Source: a virus
Taxonomy: Duplodnaviria; Heunggongvirae; Uroviricota; Caudoviricetes
DNA: 36,958 nt
Virus record (IMG/VR): IMGVR_UViG_2897346870_000003
Span: 1 to 36,958 of that record
Direction: 5' to 3' (one strand)
Shown here: positions 2,283-9,514 of the stretch, in pieces
Numbering within the stretch: the first letter of the stretch is position 1
How the letters are laid out: every line of letters starts with the position of its first letter
Notes under the pieces: generated by a model
Told to the model about the DNA's origin: nothing
The model's input: the letters and a program-made list of their open reading frames with translations, nothing else
Database searches by the model: none
Position numbers and translations under genes: made by a program

Positions 2283-2460
2283 CATCCCGTGATAAAACCG
2301 TGATTTCCTGATCCAGTTTTTTTAAGGAGTCTATTGTTTCCTGTCGATAAGACAGCAATTCACGAAGCTGGTTTATAGCTGCCAGCTTCTTTGTCATCCA
2401 CTCGTAAATTTCCTCATTTGTGTATCCGGGCGCGACGATTTTTGGTTCTGTTTTGTGCAT
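2254..2460 (-). CDS. Hypothetical small coiled-coil protein (68 aa), first gene of the leftward early operon
   Basis: Start placed at the internal ATG (MHKTEPKIV...) because it is preceded by a strong GAGGAGGTG Shine-Dalgarno; sits downstream of the pL-like promoter. Confidence 0.6.
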   Translation of the reverse strand: MHKTEPKIVAPGYTNEEIYEWMTKKLAAINQLRELLSYRQETIDSLKKLDQEITVLSRDATLDIVQTN

Positions 2461-2519
2461 TTCACACCTCCTCAAGTTATCAGTTACTTGTTGATGGGGA
2501 CCAGATTGTTAAAGAGCTA

Positions 2520-2543
2520 AGCGTCCTGTAGGGCGCTTTTTTG
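2520..2543 (+). terminator. Rho-independent terminator on the plus strand (7-bp stem AGCGTCC/GGGCGCT, loop TGTA, T6)
   Basis: Hairpin followed by TTTTTT read directly; on the minus strand the stem is preceded, not followed, by the A/T run. Confidence 0.55.
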
Positions 2544-2610
2544 TTGCTAACGAATCATCCTGGACTTCATATGCCCCAGGCGGCTACTTCGTGGGCGTCC
2601 TGCCTGTTCG

Positions 2611-2655
2611 TTGTTTCTCTTGGGTACATTATGTATCTCATGGGTACATTGTCAA
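2611..2655 (-). promoter_or_regulatory. pL-like promoter (minus strand TTGACA-16-CATAAT) overlapping OL operators
   Basis: Minus-strand -35 at 2650-2655 and -10 at 2628-2633. ATGTATCTCATGGGTACAT (2631-2649) has the same 19-bp architecture as the operator at 3436-3454. Confidence 0.55.
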
Positions 2656-2694
2656 GTATGAAAAAACCTGCCGAAGCAGGTTCATAGACATTGA

Positions 2695-3369
2695 TTAGGC
2701 TTTGATTTTGTATCTTCTTGGTTTTCCTGAGAAAATCACTGTACCAATTATAGAGCAATTACCGTTGATTTTAATGTAAGGCTCAGGCCAATTTGGGTTT
2801 AACGCTTTGAGATAACGCTGTGTCCCATCTTCTATCAACCTTTTGAAGGTGGTTTCACCTGTATCGTGCATCAGTGCAATAACGTCGTCACCGTGGCAGG
2901 CAGGTACTTCAGGATCGACAAAAATCATGTCTCCCGGGCGGTACTCATCAATCATTGAATCACCTATCACCCGCAAGATATAAGTCATTTCCCCACAGGG
3001 TACAGGGCAGGGATACGTTTCTGCTGTGCTCAAATCAACCTCAGAATATCCAACTTCTTTCCATGCTCCGGCCTGTACCCATGATATGACAGGGACTAAT
3101 GTGATTTGTTTATTAGTGATTGAAACATCAGGTTTTTTTGTGATGTTCGTTGTCTGGTGTTCTTGATCGAGCCATCCGACAGGCAGGTCGAAACATTTTT
3201 CGATGTGTCGTGCCATGCTGTCACCGATATTTTTAGTAGCACCATCTCCCATAAACCTGCTGGTCTGGGTTGGCTCGCGATCAATCATAGTGGCAAAGGA
3301 AGAATTCCCGCCAACACCATCTCTCAGTTTTCTGGCGTTAGACCGCCGGATGTCATGGATTGTTTTCAT
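2695..3369 (-). CDS. cI: CI-type repressor with LexA-like S24 autopeptidase domain
   Basis: 224 aa; N-terminal HTH region and C-terminal S24-like segment (LVPVISWVQAGAW...RVIGDSMIDEY); divergent from cro across an operator region. Confidence 0.92.
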   Translation of the reverse strand: MKTIHDIRRSNARKLRDGVGGNSSFATMIDREPTQTSRFMGDGATKNIGDSMARHIEKCFDLPVGWLDQEHQTTNITKKPDVSITNKQITLVPVISWVQAGAWKEVGYSEVDLSTAETYPCPVPCGEMTYILRVIGDSMIDEYRPGDMIFVDPEVPACHGDDVIALMHDTGETTFKRLIEDGTQRYLKALNPNWPEPYIKINGNCSIIGTVIFSGKPRRYKIKA

Positions 3370-3375
3370 AACGAA

Positions 3376-3454
3376 ATTAAAACCCTTGTACCGTTAAGGT
3401 ACAAGTATCTTGAAGGTTCATTTCAATCATGTAATATGTACACCGGAGGTACAT
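3376..3454. promoter_or_regulatory. OR region: perfect 21-bp palindrome CTTGTACCGTTAAGGTACAAG (3385-3405) and operator ATGTACACCGGAGGTACAT (3436-3454), with candidate pRM and pR
   Basis: Palindromes read directly. Minus-strand TTGTAC-17-TTTAAT ends about 7 nt before the cI ATG, implying a leaderless cI mRNA; plus-strand TTGAAG...TAATAT is a pR candidate. Confidence 0.6.
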
Positions 3455-3459
3455 ATTGT

Positions 3460-3660
3460 ATGAAAGCGTATTGGGACTCTTTAACCAAAGAACAGCAGGA
3501 CGAGTTGGCCGGAAAAGTTGGCTCAACACCTGGCTACTTACGGCTGGTTTTCAATGGCTATAAAAAAGCCAGTTTTGTGCTGGCTAAAAAACTTGAGCAA
3601 TGCACGTCAGGTGCAATTACGAAATCTGACTTAAGACCGGATATCTATCCGAAAGATTAG
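3460..3660 (+). CDS. cro: Cro-like HTH regulator
   Basis: 66 aa, GGAGG Shine-Dalgarno, divergent from cI; HTH-like segment ELAGKVGSTPGYLRLVFNG. Confidence 0.85.
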   Translation: MKAYWDSLTKEQQDELAGKVGSTPGYLRLVFNGYKKASFVLAKKLEQCTSGAITKSDLRPDIYPKD

Positions 3661-3691
3661 CAGAACACTTTCAATTTTTAACCACAGAACG

Positions 3692-4255
3692 ATGAGGCTA
3701 ATCGTGGGTAAGCATCACTGGAAAATAGAAAAACAGCCTGAGTGGTACGTGAAAGCTGTCAGAAAAACTATCGCGGCGTTGCCGGGTGGTTACGCTGAAG
3801 CGGCTGACTGGCTGGATGTAACAGAGAACGCTTTATTCAACCGCCTTCGTGCAGATGGCGATCAGATTTTTCCGCTGGGATGGGCAATGGTTTTACAGCG
3901 TGCTGGTGGCACTCACTTCATTGCTGATGCTGTGGCGCAGTCTGCAAATGGCGTATTTGTGTCTCTTCCTGACGTCGAGGATGTGGACAACGCCGATATT
4001 AACCAGCGTCTGCTGGAAGTCATTGAACAGATCGGCAGTTATTCAAAACAGATTCGTTCAGCAATCGAAGACGGTGTAGTGGAACCGCATGAGAAGACAG
4101 CAATTAACGACGAGCTGTATCTCTCAATTTCGAAGCTGCAGGAGCATGCAGCACTGGTCTACAAAATCTTTTGCATTTCAGAAAGTAATGACGCCCGCGA
4201 GTGTGCAGCTCCGGGCGCCGTGGCGTGTCGTGACTGTGGAGAAACTAACGCATGA
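3692..4255 (+). CDS. CII-like regulatory protein (CP76 family-like), putative
   Basis: 187 aa directly downstream of cro; family assignment is from recalled features, not searched. Confidence 0.6.
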
Positions 4256-4590
4256 ACAGTTTAACAACACACTACCGTCGCTCGCAACTGATTGCGCTTC
4301 CTGTACCGGGTGGAAAAGCGAAGGTGGAGTATTGCTATGCAGTAAATGTACCAGGTGACAGGGAAATTGTAACCCACAGCTTTGCTGAGTGGGCTGTGGG
4401 TGATTTCAACCGGCAGAAGGAGACAGTCCTTTGCGACAAGTTAACCGCTGGTTCAAAGATCACTACGGAGTGCCCGTCAGAGTCATTCGTTGGGAACCGG
4501 AAACACAACGTGTTATCTACCTCCGCGAAGGCTATGAGCATGAGTGCTTCAGCCCGCTCGAACAGTTTCGTCGTAAATTCAGGGAAATAG
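4252..4590 (+). CDS. Hypothetical protein (112 aa)
   Basis: ATGA overlap with the upstream gene; a more protein-like alternative frame is noted in findings. Confidence 0.5.
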
Positions 4591-4599
4591 AGGTCGGTC

Positions 4600-5541
4600 A
4601 TGAGCACTAAATTAACCGGCTATGTATGGGATGGTTGTGCTGCATCAGGCATGAAATTATCCAGCGTGGCAATTATGGCCCGCCTGGCTGATTTCAGTAA
4701 TGACGAAGGTGTGTGCTGGCCATCAATTGAAACCATTGCCCGCCAGATTGGCGCGGGGATGAGTACCGTCAGAACGGCTATCGCACGGCTGGAAGCAGAA
4801 GGCTGGTTAACGCGTAGGGCGCGTCGCCAGGGTAACCGCAATGCGTCGAATGTTTATCAGCTTAACGTTGCGAAGCTTCAGGCAGCGGCATTTTCTCAAC
4901 TGTCAGATTCTGACCCGTCAAAATCTGACGCATCAAAATCTGACCCGTCAAAATTTGATGCGTCGAAATCTGGCAAAAAAGCGGGTTTTCACCCGTCAGA
5001 ATCTGGTGGGGATCCGTCAGTAAAATCAAAACATGATCCGTCAGATAAAAAAACTTCTCGTCCGGACGCTTCGCAACCGGACACGCAGACGGCTGAACAG
5101 GATTTTTTAACTCGCCATCCTGATGCGGTTGTATTCAGCCCTAAAAAGCGCCAGTGGGGGACGCAGGATGATTTGACCTGCGCACAGTGGCTCTGGAAAA
5201 AAATCATCGCCCTGTACGAGCATGCCGCCGAATGTGACGGCGAGGTGGTTCGTCCCAAAGAACCGAACTGGACAGCCTGGGCAAACGAAATTCGCCTGAT
5301 GTGTGTGCAGGATGGTCGTACTCATAAACAAATCTGCGAGATGTACAGCCGCGTCAGTCGCGATCCGTTCTGGTGCCGTAACGTGCTCAGCCCGTCGAAG
5401 CTGCGGGAAAAATGGGATGAGCTTTCCCTGCGCTTATCGCCGTCCGTCAGCACGTACACCGAAAAACGCGAAGACCCGTACTTCAAAGCCAGTTACGACA
5501 ACGTGGACTACAGCCAGATCCCGGCAGGATTCAGGGGGTGA
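4600..5541 (+). CDS. Replication initiation protein (lambda O-like; N-terminal HTH, internal iteron-encoded repeats)
   Basis: 313 aa; HTH-like N-terminus; the central SDSDPSKSDASKSDPSKFDASKS repeat is encoded by DNA iterons, the lambda-O arrangement. Confidence 0.8.
   Translation: MSTKLTGYVWDGCAASGMKLSSVAIMARLADFSNDEGVCWPSIETIARQIGAGMSTVRTAIARLEAEGWLTRRARRQGNRNASNVYQLNVAKLQAAAFSQLSDSDPSKSDASKSDPSKFDASKSGKKAGFHPSESGGDPSVKSKHDPSDKKTSRPDASQPDTQTAEQDFLTRHPDAVVFSPKKRQWGTQDDLTCAQWLWKKIIALYEHAAECDGEVVRPKEPNWTAWANEIRLMCVQDGRTHKQICEMYSRVSRDPFWCRNVLSPSKLREKWDELSLRLSPSVSTYTEKREDPYFKASYDNVDYSQIPAGFRG
4897..5050 (+). repeat. Origin-like iterons: about five tandem 15-bp repeats (CCGTCAAAATCTGAC-like) plus two GATCCGTCAG repeats, followed by an A-rich tract
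   Basis: Read directly within the O-like coding sequence. Confidence 0.7.
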
Positions 5542-5543
5542 TC

Positions 5544-6032
5544 ATGAGTCTTTTGAATGACGTTCAGAAATTCATTGAAGCCCATCCGGGGTGTACTTCC
5601 GGAGACATTGCGGATGCTTTTGCAGGTTACTCACGACAGCGCGTTCTGCAGTCAGCAAGCAAGTTACGTCAGAGTGGGCGTGTGGCTCACCGTTGTGAAG
5701 GGGATACACGCAGACATTTCCCGCGGCTGACTGAGATACCGCAGGAGCCGGAACCGCAACCAGTTCGTGAATCCAGACCTGTGCGCAATTTCTATGTCGG
5801 CACTAACGATCCCCGGGTGATTTTGTGCCTGACCCGCCAGGCGGAAGAACTGGAGTCCAGGGGCTTATACCGTCGTGCTGCAACGGTGTGGATGGCGGCA
5901 TTCCGTGAAAGCCACTCCCAGCAAGAGCGAAACAATTTTCTTGCGCGTCGTGAGCGGTGTTTACGGAAAAGCAGCAAGCGCGCTGTATCGGTTGAAGAGT
6001 GGTATCTGTCAGGGAATTACGTGGGGGCTTAA
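5544..6032 (+). CDS. Putative transcriptional regulator with a PerC-like C-terminal motif
   Basis: Start at the ATG 5 nt after AGGGGG; segment AEELESRGLYRRAATVWMAAF resembles the recalled PerC/Pch-family signature; unverified. Confidence 0.5.
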   Translation: MSLLNDVQKFIEAHPGCTSGDIADAFAGYSRQRVLQSASKLRQSGRVAHRCEGDTRRHFPRLTEIPQEPEPQPVRESRPVRNFYVGTNDPRVILCLTRQAEELESRGLYRRAATVWMAAFRESHSQQERNNFLARRERCLRKSSKRAVSVEEWYLSGNYVGA

Positions 6033-6358
6033 TGACGACGTTAACTCAATGCCAGCAGCAGGTGCTGGATATGCTGATTTCTTACCAGAAAGAACGTGGC
6101 TTCCCGCCAACCAATCAGGAGGTGGCTACCATGCTGGGATACCGTTCAGTGAATGCAGCGGTGGAGCATCTTCGCGCACTGGAGAAAAAAGGCGTCATCA
6201 CGATAAAGCGTGGCGTGGCCCGGGGCATCACGCTTCATACCGCGGTGAAGGACGACGACAGCGAGGTGGCCGGGATTATCCGCGCACTGCTTGCTGGTGA
6301 GGAAAACGCCAGGCTGCGTGCAGCCCACTGGTTACATGAGAGGGGGCTGAAAGTATGA
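6032..6358 (+). CDS. LexA N-terminal DNA-binding-domain homologue without the peptidase domain
   Basis: 108 aa; MTTLTQCQQQVLDMLISYQKERGFPPTNQEVATMLGYRSVNAAVEHLRALEKKGVITIKRGVARGI parallels the recalled LexA N-terminus; no S24 domain follows. Confidence 0.7.
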   Translation: MTTLTQCQQQVLDMLISYQKERGFPPTNQEVATMLGYRSVNAAVEHLRALEKKGVITIKRGVARGITLHTAVKDDDSEVAGIIRALLAGEENARLRAAHWLHERGLKV

Positions 6359-6744
6359 AGCTGATTCTGCCTTTTCCACCCAGCGTGAACACCTACTGGC
6401 GACACCCCAACAAAGTGGCATTTGCTGGTAAGAGCCTGATAAGCGCGGCGGGGCGAAAATTCCAGAGTGCGGCGTGCACAGCAATAGTTGAGCAGTTACG
6501 TCGTCTGCCGAAACCAACGTCGGCACCTGCTTCAGTGGAGATCGTGTTGTTTCCTCCGGATAACCGGATCCGCGATCTGGACAACTATAACAAGGCGCTG
6601 TTTGACGCCCTGACCCACGCGGGTGTGTGGGAAGACGACAGCCAGGTGAAAAGAATGCTGGTGGAGTGGGGACCGGTTATCCCGGAAGGGAAGGTCGAGA
6701 TCACTATCAGTAAGTACGAGAAAACGGCGGGTGCAGCCGCCTGA
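6355..6744 (+). CDS. rusA: Holliday junction resolvase RusA
   Basis: 129 aa; ...RIRDLDNYNKALFDALTHAGVWEDDSQV is a RusA-type catalytic region. Confidence 0.9.
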   Translation: MKLILPFPPSVNTYWRHPNKVAFAGKSLISAAGRKFQSAACTAIVEQLRRLPKPTSAPASVEIVLFPPDNRIRDLDNYNKALFDALTHAGVWEDDSQVKRMLVEWGPVIPEGKVEITISKYEKTAGAAA

Positions 6745-6763
6745 TCAAGAGGAGAAACGAAGT

Positions 6764-7561
6764 ATGAATAATCTGATGGTCATTGATGGTATTGAAGTTC
6801 GTCGTGATGCTTATGGGCGTTACAGCCTGAACGATCTGCACAGGGCTGCCGGTTCTCTGGATAAGCATAAGCCTGCATTCTGGCTCCGCAATGAGCAAAC
6901 TGAACGTTTAATAAGCGAGTTGCAGATTTGCAACTCGGTCAATATAGAGCCAGTTAACGTTATTCGTGGCGGAAATAACCAGGGGACGTATGTCTGCAAA
7001 GAACTGGTGTATGCCTATGCAATGTGGATCAGCCCGTCATTCCATCTGAAGGTGATCCGTACTTTCGATATGGTAACCAGCGCATCGGAAAAATTATCCG
7101 GGCAGGCTGCTGACAAGATGCAGGCTGGCGTGATTCTGCTGGACTTTATGCGCCGGGAGTTAAACCTGTCTAACTCTTCAGTGCTTGGTGCCTGTCAGAA
7201 ACTCCAGGAGGCTGTTGGCTTACCGAATCTGGCACCGCGCTATGCCATTGATGCTCCTGCTGACGCGCCTGATGGCTCAAGCCGTCCCACGCTGTCACTG
7301 AGTGCACTGCTGAAGCAGTATGGTATCCGCCTGACAGCTAATCAGGCATATCACCAGATGGTGAAGCTGGGGATCGTCGAGCAGCGCGAACGATACAGCC
7401 GTACCGCGATTAACAACATCAAAAAATTCTGGTCGCTGACAGCGAAAGGCTGCATGTTCGGCAAGAACATCACCAGTCCCGCAAATCCGCGCGAGACGCA
7501 GCCGCATTTCTTCGAATCCCGATTCCCTGAGCTGTTAAAGCTGCTCGATACCGTTCATTGA
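6764..7561 (+). CDS. KilA-N domain DNA-binding protein (antirepressor-like C-terminus)
   Basis: Start at the ATG after AGGAG; N-terminal KilA-N-like segment (MVIDGIEVRRDAYGRYSLNDLHRAAG). Confidence 0.8.
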   Translation: MNNLMVIDGIEVRRDAYGRYSLNDLHRAAGSLDKHKPAFWLRNEQTERLISELQICNSVNIEPVNVIRGGNNQGTYVCKELVYAYAMWISPSFHLKVIRTFDMVTSASEKLSGQAADKMQAGVILLDFMRRELNLSNSSVLGACQKLQEAVGLPNLAPRYAIDAPADAPDGSSRPTLSLSALLKQYGIRLTANQAYHQMVKLGIVEQRERYSRTAINNIKKFWSLTAKGCMFGKNITSPANPRETQPHFFESRFPELLKLLDTVH

Positions 7562-7562
7562 G

Positions 7563-8558
7563 GTGACCGTGAGAGCACTACTGACCCCTGAAATTGCCCC
7601 GCGTATGGGGATCGTATTGTTCAGGCCCGGTTCAGAGCTGATGCCCCTGTTTATGCAGGGGCGTGTACTGCTGGAGCCTGAGCCGGAGCATTATTCATCT
7701 TTCGCCAGTGGTGCCGTTCCCGCGGCATCACAACCGCTGGCGGATGATCCTGCCGTTCGGGCCGTGTTCCGCAATGAGGCAGTGATCCGTCGTGCTGGTG
7801 GCGTGGAATGTCTTGAAAGCTGGTTACTTCGTGAAAAAGGCTGCCAGTGGCCTCATTCCGACTGGCACAGCGAGAACATGACCACAATGCGACACGCGCC
7901 GGGCGCAATCCGTCTGTGCTGGCACTGCGATAATCAGTTACGTGATCAGTTCACGGAGCGGCTGGAATCAATGGCAACGGATAACTGTGCCCGTTGGGTG
8001 TTGTCTGTAGTCCGTCGGGATCTCGATTTTAATGATAACCATGCCGTGACAATGCCGGAACTGTGCTGGTGGCTGGTTCGTAATGACCTGGCGGATGCCT
8101 TACCGGAAAGCGCAGCCCGTAAGGCACTGAGATTACCGAAGTCTGTTTTGCCGTCTGTCACCCGGGAAAGTGACCTTGTGCCTTCGGTTCCTGCCACCAG
8201 CATTATCCAGGATAAAGCGAAAAAGGTGCTGGCGCTGAAAGTGGATCCGGAGTCGCCGGAGTCTTTTATGTTACGCCCCAAACGTCGTCGCTGGGTTAAT
8301 GAACAGTACACGCGCTGGGTTAAGACGCAGCCGTGTGCATGTTGTGGAAAGCCAGCTGATGATCCGCATCATCTGATAGGCCATGGTCAGGGTGGAATGG
8401 GTACAAAAGCGCATGACCTTTTTGTGCTGCCTTTGTGCAGAAAACACCACGACGAACTGCATGCGGATACCGTGGCATTTGAAGAGAAGTATGGCTCCCA
8501 GCTGGAGCTGATATTTCGTTTTATCGATCGTGCGCTGGCAATTGGCGTGCTGGCCTGA
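7563..8558 (+). CDS. DUF968-family protein with C-terminal Cys/His zinc-finger-like motif; start codon uncertain
   Basis: 331 aa; C-terminal CACCGK...HHLIGHG...CRKHHDELH; typical rusA-to-Q position. Confidence 0.75.
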   Translation: MTVRALLTPEIAPRMGIVLFRPGSELMPLFMQGRVLLEPEPEHYSSFASGAVPAASQPLADDPAVRAVFRNEAVIRRAGGVECLESWLLREKGCQWPHSDWHSENMTTMRHAPGAIRLCWHCDNQLRDQFTERLESMATDNCARWVLSVVRRDLDFNDNHAVTMPELCWWLVRNDLADALPESAARKALRLPKSVLPSVTRESDLVPSVPATSIIQDKAKKVLALKVDPESPESFMLRPKRRRWVNEQYTRWVKTQPCACCGKPADDPHHLIGHGQGGMGTKAHDLFVLPLCRKHHDELHADTVAFEEKYGSQLELIFRFIDRALAIGVLA

Positions 8559-8575
8559 TTTTGTGGAGAAGGTTG

Positions 8576-8926
8576 ATGCGTGATATGTATGAAGTATTGG
8601 ACCGCTGGGGTGCATGGGCTGCAGCAGATAACAGTGGTGTGGACTGGCAGCCTGTTGCTGCAGGGTTTAAAGGTTTACTACCTCATGGAAAGAAAACACG
8701 CCAACAATGCGATGATGATGAAGGCATCATGATTGACAGCTGTGTTGCGCGATTGCGGAAATATAAGCCAGAAGAATATGAACTGATCATTGCTCACTTT
8801 GTTATCGGTATTTCACTCCGTTCAATAGCAAAGAAACGGAAATGCTCTGACGGGTCAATCAGAAAACAACTTCAAGCAGCAATAGGAGTGATTGAAGGTA
8901 TTTTGTTGATTATTAAGCCCCTGTAG
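8576..8926 (+). CDS. Q: Late-gene antitermination protein Q
   Basis: MRDMYEVLDRWGAWAA... with conserved YELIIAHFVIGISLRSIAKKRKCSDGSIRKQL segment; GGAGAAGG Shine-Dalgarno. Confidence 0.88.
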   Translation: MRDMYEVLDRWGAWAAADNSGVDWQPVAAGFKGLLPHGKKTRQQCDDDEGIMIDSCVARLRKYKPEEYELIIAHFVIGISLRSIAKKRKCSDGSIRKQLQAAIGVIEGILLIIKPL

Positions 8927-8929
8927 GGC

Positions 8930-9514
8930 TTAATAATTCATATGAATTCTGTTTCCGAGATAATATAATCCAAAGAAAGTTGATACTAAGAGTTGCCAAA
9001 CGAGGAAAGTAAATACAACAGTATAAACCATTAAAACAATACTGTTTTGATAGACATTGATTAATGGTGAAAATATAGCATTAAGTATTATTATAACAAT
9101 GCTTAATGCTGTTAAAAAAGAGAATAGCATGCAAAGAAATAATCGTCTGGTCAGAACCTCCTCTGAATTTACTACTTTTCCATTTTCTTTTGTTACTTTT
9201 ATTTCAATAGAGGCATTTCTTTCATTGCTAATCAATGGTAAATCAATCTCAGCTCTATTGAAAGTTGCTATGGCGGCCAGAGCGGCAATATAAAACCCTG
9301 GTAGGTTAGAGATAAATGAAACGATTGATTTAATGAAACCATTGTCATCAAATAAATCTTTGACAGGGATTTTTAATAGAATGAAAAGTACTGCTGTGAT
9401 AGAAGTAAGTAGAATTGGTGCTACCCAATCATATGCAGCTTTGCCGCTAATACCTTTAATAAAAAGATATCCAAACGGCTTGCCTAGATGAGAGAAAACT
9501 GAAAGTATTGGCAT
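8930..9514 (-). CDS. Hypothetical 194-aa integral membrane protein with four predicted TM helices (candidate membrane effector)
   Basis: Four hydrophobic helices (WVAPILLTSITAVLFILL; IVSFISNLPGFYIAALAAIATF; LFLCMLFSFLTALSIVIIILNAIF; IVLMVYTVVFTFLVWQLLVSTFFGLYYL); GAGG Shine-Dalgarno; 7-nt gap to the upstream gene. Confidence 0.75.
   Translation of the reverse strand: MPILSVFSHLGKPFGYLFIKGISGKAAYDWVAPILLTSITAVLFILLKIPVKDLFDDNGFIKSIVSFISNLPGFYIAALAAIATFNRAEIDLPLISNERNASIEIKVTKENGKVVNSEEVLTRRLFLCMLFSFLTALSIVIIILNAIFSPLINVYQNSIVLMVYTVVFTFLVWQLLVSTFFGLYYLGNRIHMNY

Follow-up and report, generated by a model that had tools for sequence, protein, structure and literature searches.

YfdN of an SfII/SfV-like prophage: a PerC-family protein with a predicted winged helix, encoded next to the phage replication gene

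Introduction

Whether a phage gene that bears the name of a virulence-regulator family acts on the virulence loci of the host or serves the phage itself is the question raised by the gene at 5544-6032 of the window, by which we mean the whole stretch of 36,958 nucleotides that was analysed (IMG/VR record IMGVR_UViG_2897346870_000003). A sequence-only reading of this DNA had described the gene as a regulator with a PerC-like motif, lying beside a gene for a LexA DNA-binding domain (LexA-DBD), and had regarded it as a candidate for cross-talk with the host. The gene and its PerC-family label are already known from RefSeq, PHROGs and the literature. A 100% identical protein at NCBI is named "PerC family transcriptional regulator", and the product shares 95% identity over all 162 residues with YfdN of Escherichia coli K-12 (b2357), the same protein under the same RefSeq name, encoded by the cryptic prophage CPS-53/KpLE1. 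Beyond this, we report here that the protein has two domains, that it matches only half of the PerC profile, and that its gene is coupled to replication genes in a conserved way.

The gene was termed "the K12 unique PerC homologue" by Uhlich et al. (2018), who deleted it for a clean ler::lacZ background (PMC5931665). In the literature that we searched, YfdN has only incidental mentions, which also include a glycogen phenotype upon over-expression and a filamentation fragment, and no direct experiment on it was found.

The yfdN gene and its distribution

The open reading frame that had been reported is intact: it comprises 162 codons on the + strand, from an ATG at 5544 to a TAA stop at 6030-6032, and encodes a protein of 162 aa. 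RefSeq starts yfdN at a GTG at 5538, which gives 164 aa. A Shine-Dalgarno-like AGGGGG (5533-5538, + strand) lies 5 nt upstream of the ATG and is built from the terminal Arg-Gly codons of the upstream replication gene, the TGA stop of which occupies 5539-5541. Because the ATG at 5544 has the better Shine-Dalgarno spacing and most YfdN homologues start with MSL, it is at least as good a start as the GTG. For 49 distinct alleles, dN/dS is about 0.17, and non-synonymous changes are few in both domains (described below) and frequent in the linker that joins them, the variable codons of which include 8 non-synonymous versus 7 synonymous. yfdN is a real gene, with purifying selection on both domains and not on the linker.

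We searched complete E. coli genomes and it turned out that yfdN DNA is present in 2673 of 5426, where it is mostly annotated as yfdN, while group 1 pch is present in 673. The same gene is known as orf40 of SfV and sb43 of ST64B, and it also exists in SfII, SfIV, mEp460 and several Stx2a and Stx2c converting phages.

In line with the cross-talk suggested by the sequence-only reading, such a gene might encode an activator that, like Pch, turns on virulence loci of the host (LEE1/ler or other horizontally acquired islands) during lysogeny, although we consider this very unlikely. This explanation would suit the full-length YfdN carried by Stx2a and Stx2c converting phages of O157 strains, as well as the PerC core that is common to YfdN and the proven activators PerC and PchA/B/C; however, yfdN is abundant in strains without the LEE. 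For instance, it was found in K-12 and CFT073, neither of which is known to carry the LEE. Since the gene is common in such strains, LEE control cannot be its main function, and the selected function should be phage-centred or general. Besides, a ler fusion in a yfdN deletion of MG1655 still needed group 1 Pch for its activation, which was 4- to 8-fold with PchA/B/C (PMC5931665).

Assignment to the PerC family

For the PerC-family call, a profile score above the gathering threshold had been named beforehand as the test, and this is what we obtained: the Pfam PerC model (PF06069) matches residues 98-150 of YfdN with 38.8 bits (E 1.2e-9), while its curated gathering score is 22.6 bits. The coverage is partial: the match spans no more than positions 5-57 of the 90 in the profile, and the C-terminal half of the profile has no counterpart in YfdN. 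The alignment to PerC and PchA/B/C, which the sequence-only reading had asked for, works as well. By pairwise BLASTP, YfdN shares 30% identity over 56 aa with PerC of EPEC (plasmid pMAR2, 89 aa; E 2e-6) and 42% over 50 aa with a group 1 Pch of EHEC (one copy from the O157:H7 chromosome, 104 aa; E 6e-9). These alignments leave residues 57-104 of Pch and residues 57-89 of PerC without an equivalent in YfdN. A profile of 33 YfdN homologues matches Pch with a probability of 97.5% in hhalign. The likeness to PerC thus goes well past what chance would give, and the family call of the sequence-only reading is supported.

The motif quoted from the C-terminal half, AEELESRGLYRRAATVWMAAF, was also found in its place, at residues 100-120 (5841-5903, + strand), inside the PerC core. 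The motif LE-x-[KR]G-[LF]-[YW]-RRAA-x-W followed by R-x-x-C-[LI] can be aligned between YfdN and PerC/PchA/B/C. Among 33 diverse homologues, L103, R111 and A112 are invariant, and A100, A113, R136 and C139 are nearly so. Over the full length, YfdN belongs to PHROG 1324, labelled "transcriptional activator" (phrog_1324; E 2.1e-77, residues 1-161), so that its orthology with b2357 is reflected in full-length similarity and a shared two-domain architecture.

PerC, PchA/B/C and YfdN are all encoded on mobile elements. The sequence-only reading had called the PerC/Pch activators prophage-encoded, which holds for the Pch copy that we examined, located between lysis genes and a terminase gene, and not for PerC, which is plasmid-borne in the perABC operon of the virulence plasmid pMAR2. 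In addition, short genes with a PerC-family annotation are found on many enterobacterial plasmids, among them conjugative F-like ones, and at least one of these genes adjoins ssb.

PchA/B/C of EHEC O157:H7 and PerC of EPEC share the three-helix core with YfdN and differ from it in most other respects. PerC (89 aa) and Pch (104 aa) are single-domain proteins, whereas YfdN, with 162 aa, lies outside this size range (about 89-104 aa) and has an extra winged helix and a linker. They have a C-terminal extension (Pfam positions 58-90) that YfdN is without, and the lack of this PerC/Pch half also argues against an activator of virulence loci. Their genes stand in accessory positions, while yfdN lies inside the early-right operon and is coupled to the replication gene.

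The PerC core also resembles the ANR family, for instance Aar of enteroaggregative E. coli. The NCBIfam ANR model (NF033650) matches residues 96-142 with 24.1 bits (E 2.3e-5; model positions 5-51 of 54), below its curated cut-off of 32 bits; at the level of sequence, the match is weak but real. ANR proteins consist of three short helices with a conserved cysteine (PMC4038620), and the core of YfdN shares this layout, with three predicted helices and the nearly invariant Cys139. Thus YfdN could be an ANR-like anti-regulator, in which the PerC core neutralises a transcription factor by protein contact and the net effect is repression; its targets might be an AraC-family protein, H-NS, or CII-like, Q or LexA-DBD proteins of the phage. 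This explanation gains from a PerC-family protein of a satellite, which silences LEE1 and for which the authors of that study propose an ANR-like action (PMC11773190). Nevertheless, we take it to be rather unlikely. The ANR score stays under the cut-off, and the PerC score clearly exceeds the threshold of the PerC model; ANR proteins are single-domain, below 10 kDa (39-80 aa) and bind AraC-type activators (PMC4038620), whereas YfdN has two domains; and the partners named are candidates only.

Domain architecture and predicted structure

We built an AlphaFold2 model on the 33-sequence alignment (mean pLDDT 87), in which YfdN is predicted to consist of two folded modules, a winged helix and a basic PerC core, joined by a floppy linker. 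Residues 1-60 (5544-5723, + strand; pI 9.4) are modelled with pLDDT 94-97 as a winged helix-turn-helix with the three helices (3-13, 19-25, 31-44) and the beta-hairpin wing (47-60) that are typical of this fold. The proline/acid-rich (Pro/Glu) linker, residues 61-89 (5724-5810, + strand), is predicted to be disordered (pLDDT about 58), and its length and sequence differ among YfdN homologues. The PerC core, residues 90-146 (5811-5981, + strand; pI 11.3), is modelled as three helices (90-106, 109-122 and 126-144), with pLDDT 96-98 for residues 90-144. The C-terminal tail, residues 147-162 (5982-6029, + strand), carries the subfamily motif W-x-L-[AS]-G-x-[YF]-x-G, which is absent from PerC and Pch; residues 145-162 are modelled at low confidence (pLDDT 59-76).

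With Foldseek, residues 1-60 gave SmtB, SlyA/MarR, DsrD, MecI/BlaI and F-93 at rmsd 1.5-2.8 A over about 60 residues, with marginal E-values (4e-3 to 7e-2), and the YfdN family profile matches the BlaI sequence at E 1.2e-4. The fold and this weak profile similarity are therefore shared with the BlaI/MecI, MarR/SlyA and ArsR/SmtB repressors, the dimerisation and sensor domains of which are absent from YfdN, where a PerC core is fused instead. From the fold and the basic residues in helix 3 and the wing, we infer that the predicted winged helix may bind DNA in a sequence-specific manner. Winged helices can also make protein contacts instead of binding DNA. The matches from the fold searches were to the N-terminal domain and all of them were generic winged helices, and no solved structure of the PerC core came up in the sequence or profile searches.

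The whole-library homologue search gave 102 cluster representatives, about thirty of which are full-length two-domain proteins (138-165 aa; 23-48% identity). A few representatives contain only the PerC domain and nevertheless the YfdN-type tail, and a few others have duplicated winged helices.

Genomic context of yfdN

The window is a prophage of the SfII/SfI/SfIV-like type with a contractile tail, and its late region is about 97% identical to phages of this type. It is a mosaic: only 2485-8586 is collinear (99.3%) with a prophage of Ecol_448 that carries an identical yfdN, and 1-2484 and 8587-36958 are outside this match. The early region has the order ymfK repressor, cro-like ymfT, CII-like ymfL, DUF4222, O-like initiator, yfdN, LexA-DBD, RusA, KilA-N, DUF968/HNH and then the Q antiterminator. 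Upstream, the O-like replication initiator gene (HTH_36, 313 aa; 4600-5541, + strand) stops 2 nt before the ATG of yfdN. Downstream, the gene that had been named as LexA-DBD neighbour is indeed present (108 aa; 6032-6358, + strand; PF01726, E 2.9e-19), and its ATG overlaps the stop of yfdN by one base (TAATG). The match covers positions 1-91 of 203 of the LexA model and there is no S24 peptidase domain, so the product would be a non-cleavable LexA-like binder from a phage early operon. In the range 2400-9200, terminator-like hairpins number 18 on both strands versus 6.7 expected from shuffled sequence.

Intact phages with YfdN have the same neighbours, with the replication gene upstream and methylase, LexA-DBD and RusA genes downstream. 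In K-12, yfdN is flanked by the truncated remnants yfdO and yfdM, whereas the early region of the window is intact. Most relatives have an additional gene at this point: in 53 of 73 related viral loci, yfdN and the LexA-DBD gene are separated by a Dam-family methylase gene of about 650 nt (compared with L019, 4456-5142). It is absent from the window and 20 other loci, which is why yfdN and the LexA-DBD gene abut at 6030-6034 here. The LexA-DBD gene is kept beside yfdN or dam in most relatives.

The position behind the replication gene is the most constant feature. yfdN directly follows it in SfV, ST64B, F1055 and Kp4866-6, usually a 4-nt ATGA overlap connects the replication gene with the yfdN-like gene, and the same position was found in 5 of 6 look-ups of distant relatives (23-34% identity). 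The exceptions are L011, where the YfdN relative follows recT with no replication gene nearby, and phage cdtI (see below). yfdN is thus a core early-operon gene of an SfII/SfV-like prophage, and not an added accessory gene.

A scan of the + strand near yfdN, which is weak evidence, gave no sigma-70-like site. Both this negative result and the position in the early operon speak against expression of yfdN in the lysogen, and so against an activator of virulence loci there; they suggest that YfdN is made in lytic development and is not a lysogenic-conversion factor. When CFT073 was under nitric-oxide stress, expression of yfdN increased 12.6-fold along with that of other prophage genes (PMC5320621), an increase that fits expression linked to induction.

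Relation to replication genes

Given its place, YfdN might be an accessory of the replication module and assist the O-like initiator where phage replication starts. Conceivably it attaches to DNA close to the origin, strips H-NS from the origin, or links the initiator with host replication proteins, the part that lambda P plays for O. We judge this unlikely, and the evidence points in both directions. In its favour, the gene comes right behind the replication gene and is translationally coupled to it almost everywhere, even in the relatives of 23-35% identity. A further point is an iteron-like array at 4888-5010 inside the O-like gene, with about six repeats spaced by 15 nt (TCAAAATCTGACNCG and variants) and two inverted repeats, in the segment that codes for SDSDPSKSDASKSDPSKFDASKS; it resembles an origin of the lambda type, with its iterons located within the initiator gene.

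The initiators share a conserved C-terminal peptide, (N)VDY..IPxGFRG, which ends as IPAGFRG in the window (5518-5541) and is also present in L003, L004, L008, L009, L013, L014, L016, L019, L049 and L122. Two initiator types that are 29% identical overall have an identical 24-residue tail beside nearly identical yfdN genes, which again favours a replication accessory. By a pattern scan of a viral-contig sample, we obtained 112 long ORFs ending in the IPxGFRG tail. The next gene belongs to the YfdN family in 72 cases, encodes a DnaC-like loader in 19 and a Dam-like methylase in 11, and the sharing of this slot by YfdN-family and DnaC-like genes is a further point for a replication accessory. As to a direct partnership between YfdN and the tail, it is not supported: DnaC-like or Dam-like genes also follow the tail, a YfdN-like gene in L012 follows an initiator without it, and the Arg-Gly codons of the tail double as ribosome-binding site.

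As YfdN occupies the slot of lambda P, we tested the idea that it is the helicase loader, and we conclude that it is not; it may have a looser role at the origin. Three observations decided it, and they also weigh against a replication accessory in general. Firstly, there are divergent relatives behind DnaC-like loaders: in Hafnia phage Pocitis76, a divergent YfdN-like gene comes after a lambda-O-type initiator and a DnaC-like loader, and in 10 of the 19 DnaC-like cases the loader gene is followed by a tandem winged-helix relative of the N-terminal domain of YfdN. Secondly, YfdN proteins at 96-99% identity stand beside two types of initiator that are less than 40% identical, the type of the window in 55 loci and the other in 22. 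Thirdly, phage cdtI (L015, NC_009514.1, 3501-3578) keeps only codons 1-26 of yfdN, followed by dam, and retains its initiator, a natural deletion which suggests that yfdN is dispensable. cdtI is reportedly an inducible phage. The relative after recT in L011 is likewise a point against a replication accessory.

In related prophages on the IMG/VR contigs L122 (6318-7860), L191 and L116, the same initiator type is followed by a DnaC-like ATPase of 248 aa and then by a protein of about 260 aa that has two winged helices in tandem, similar to the N-terminal domain of YfdN, and no PerC core.

Proposed role of YfdN

As its most likely role, we tentatively propose that YfdN is a delayed-early, DNA-tethered modulator of H-NS/regulator complexes in the lytic programme of the phage. 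The early-right promoter would drive yfdN, and with such transcription the product would be expected upon induction or infection and not in the quiescent lysogen. The winged helix would anchor YfdN on DNA, and the PerC core may loosen nucleoprotein complexes of H-NS, StpA and Hha in the fashion of Pch or, alternatively, may bind another regulator in the fashion of ANR proteins. The outcome would be phage genes that are de-silenced or re-tuned in lytic growth, with host genes affected incidentally; effects on virulence loci would be a side effect, only where the strain carries such loci.

The analogy comes from Pch, the only member that has been studied mechanistically. Pch activates LEE1 solely by relieving the silencing by H-NS, StpA and Hha; it lowers the occupancy of H-NS at the LEE1 promoter in vivo and in vitro, and no contact between Pch and H-NS was detected (PMC4764244). 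Activation of LEE1 by relief of H-NS silencing is known for Pch and PerC only. Other PerC-domain proteins of mobile elements, namely PchD, PchE and proteins of satellites (PICI) such as EcCIMP1_025, are no LEE1 activators; as far as their descriptions go, by which alone we compared them, they are encoded in satellites or defective elements and not in a phage early operon. PchD and PchE have hardly any effect on ler, and PchE represses curli and controls flagella. Together with the LEE1-repressing satellite protein, they indicate that the PerC core predicts neither the sign nor the target of regulation, and that the PerC domain does not fix the function.

Two further points stand against reading YfdN as a regulator. 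The PerC/Pch half that is absent from YfdN could be needed for anti-silencing, and the strict linkage to replication genes is unexplained by a purely transcriptional role. The YfdN type could instead be a core lambdoid factor at the junction of replication and early genes, from which PerC/Pch, and perhaps ANR, are captured offshoots that lost a domain; this seems improbable to us. Such a factor might, for example, clear H-NS from the origin and the early region or couple replication to delayed-early transcription, and the IPxGFRG tail of the initiator could belong to the same functional unit. The PerC-only proteins with a W-x-LAG-x-[YF]-x-G tail would be intermediates.

Conclusions

In conclusion, the predicted architecture, the half-profile match and the coupling to replication genes argue against taking the label "PerC family" as a statement of virulence function in the case of YfdN. 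To the naming of the gene itself this adds little, as yfdN was already labelled a PerC-family regulator. Nevertheless, few prophage genes of E. coli are as common as yfdN, which about half of the complete genomes carry, and it owes its label to virulence regulators that have only half of a domain in common with it. If YfdN is indeed a DNA-tethered phage anti-silencer of lytic development, the origin of the PerC/Pch regulators would be explained, and annotations of "PerC family" would have to be taken with caution as markers of virulence.
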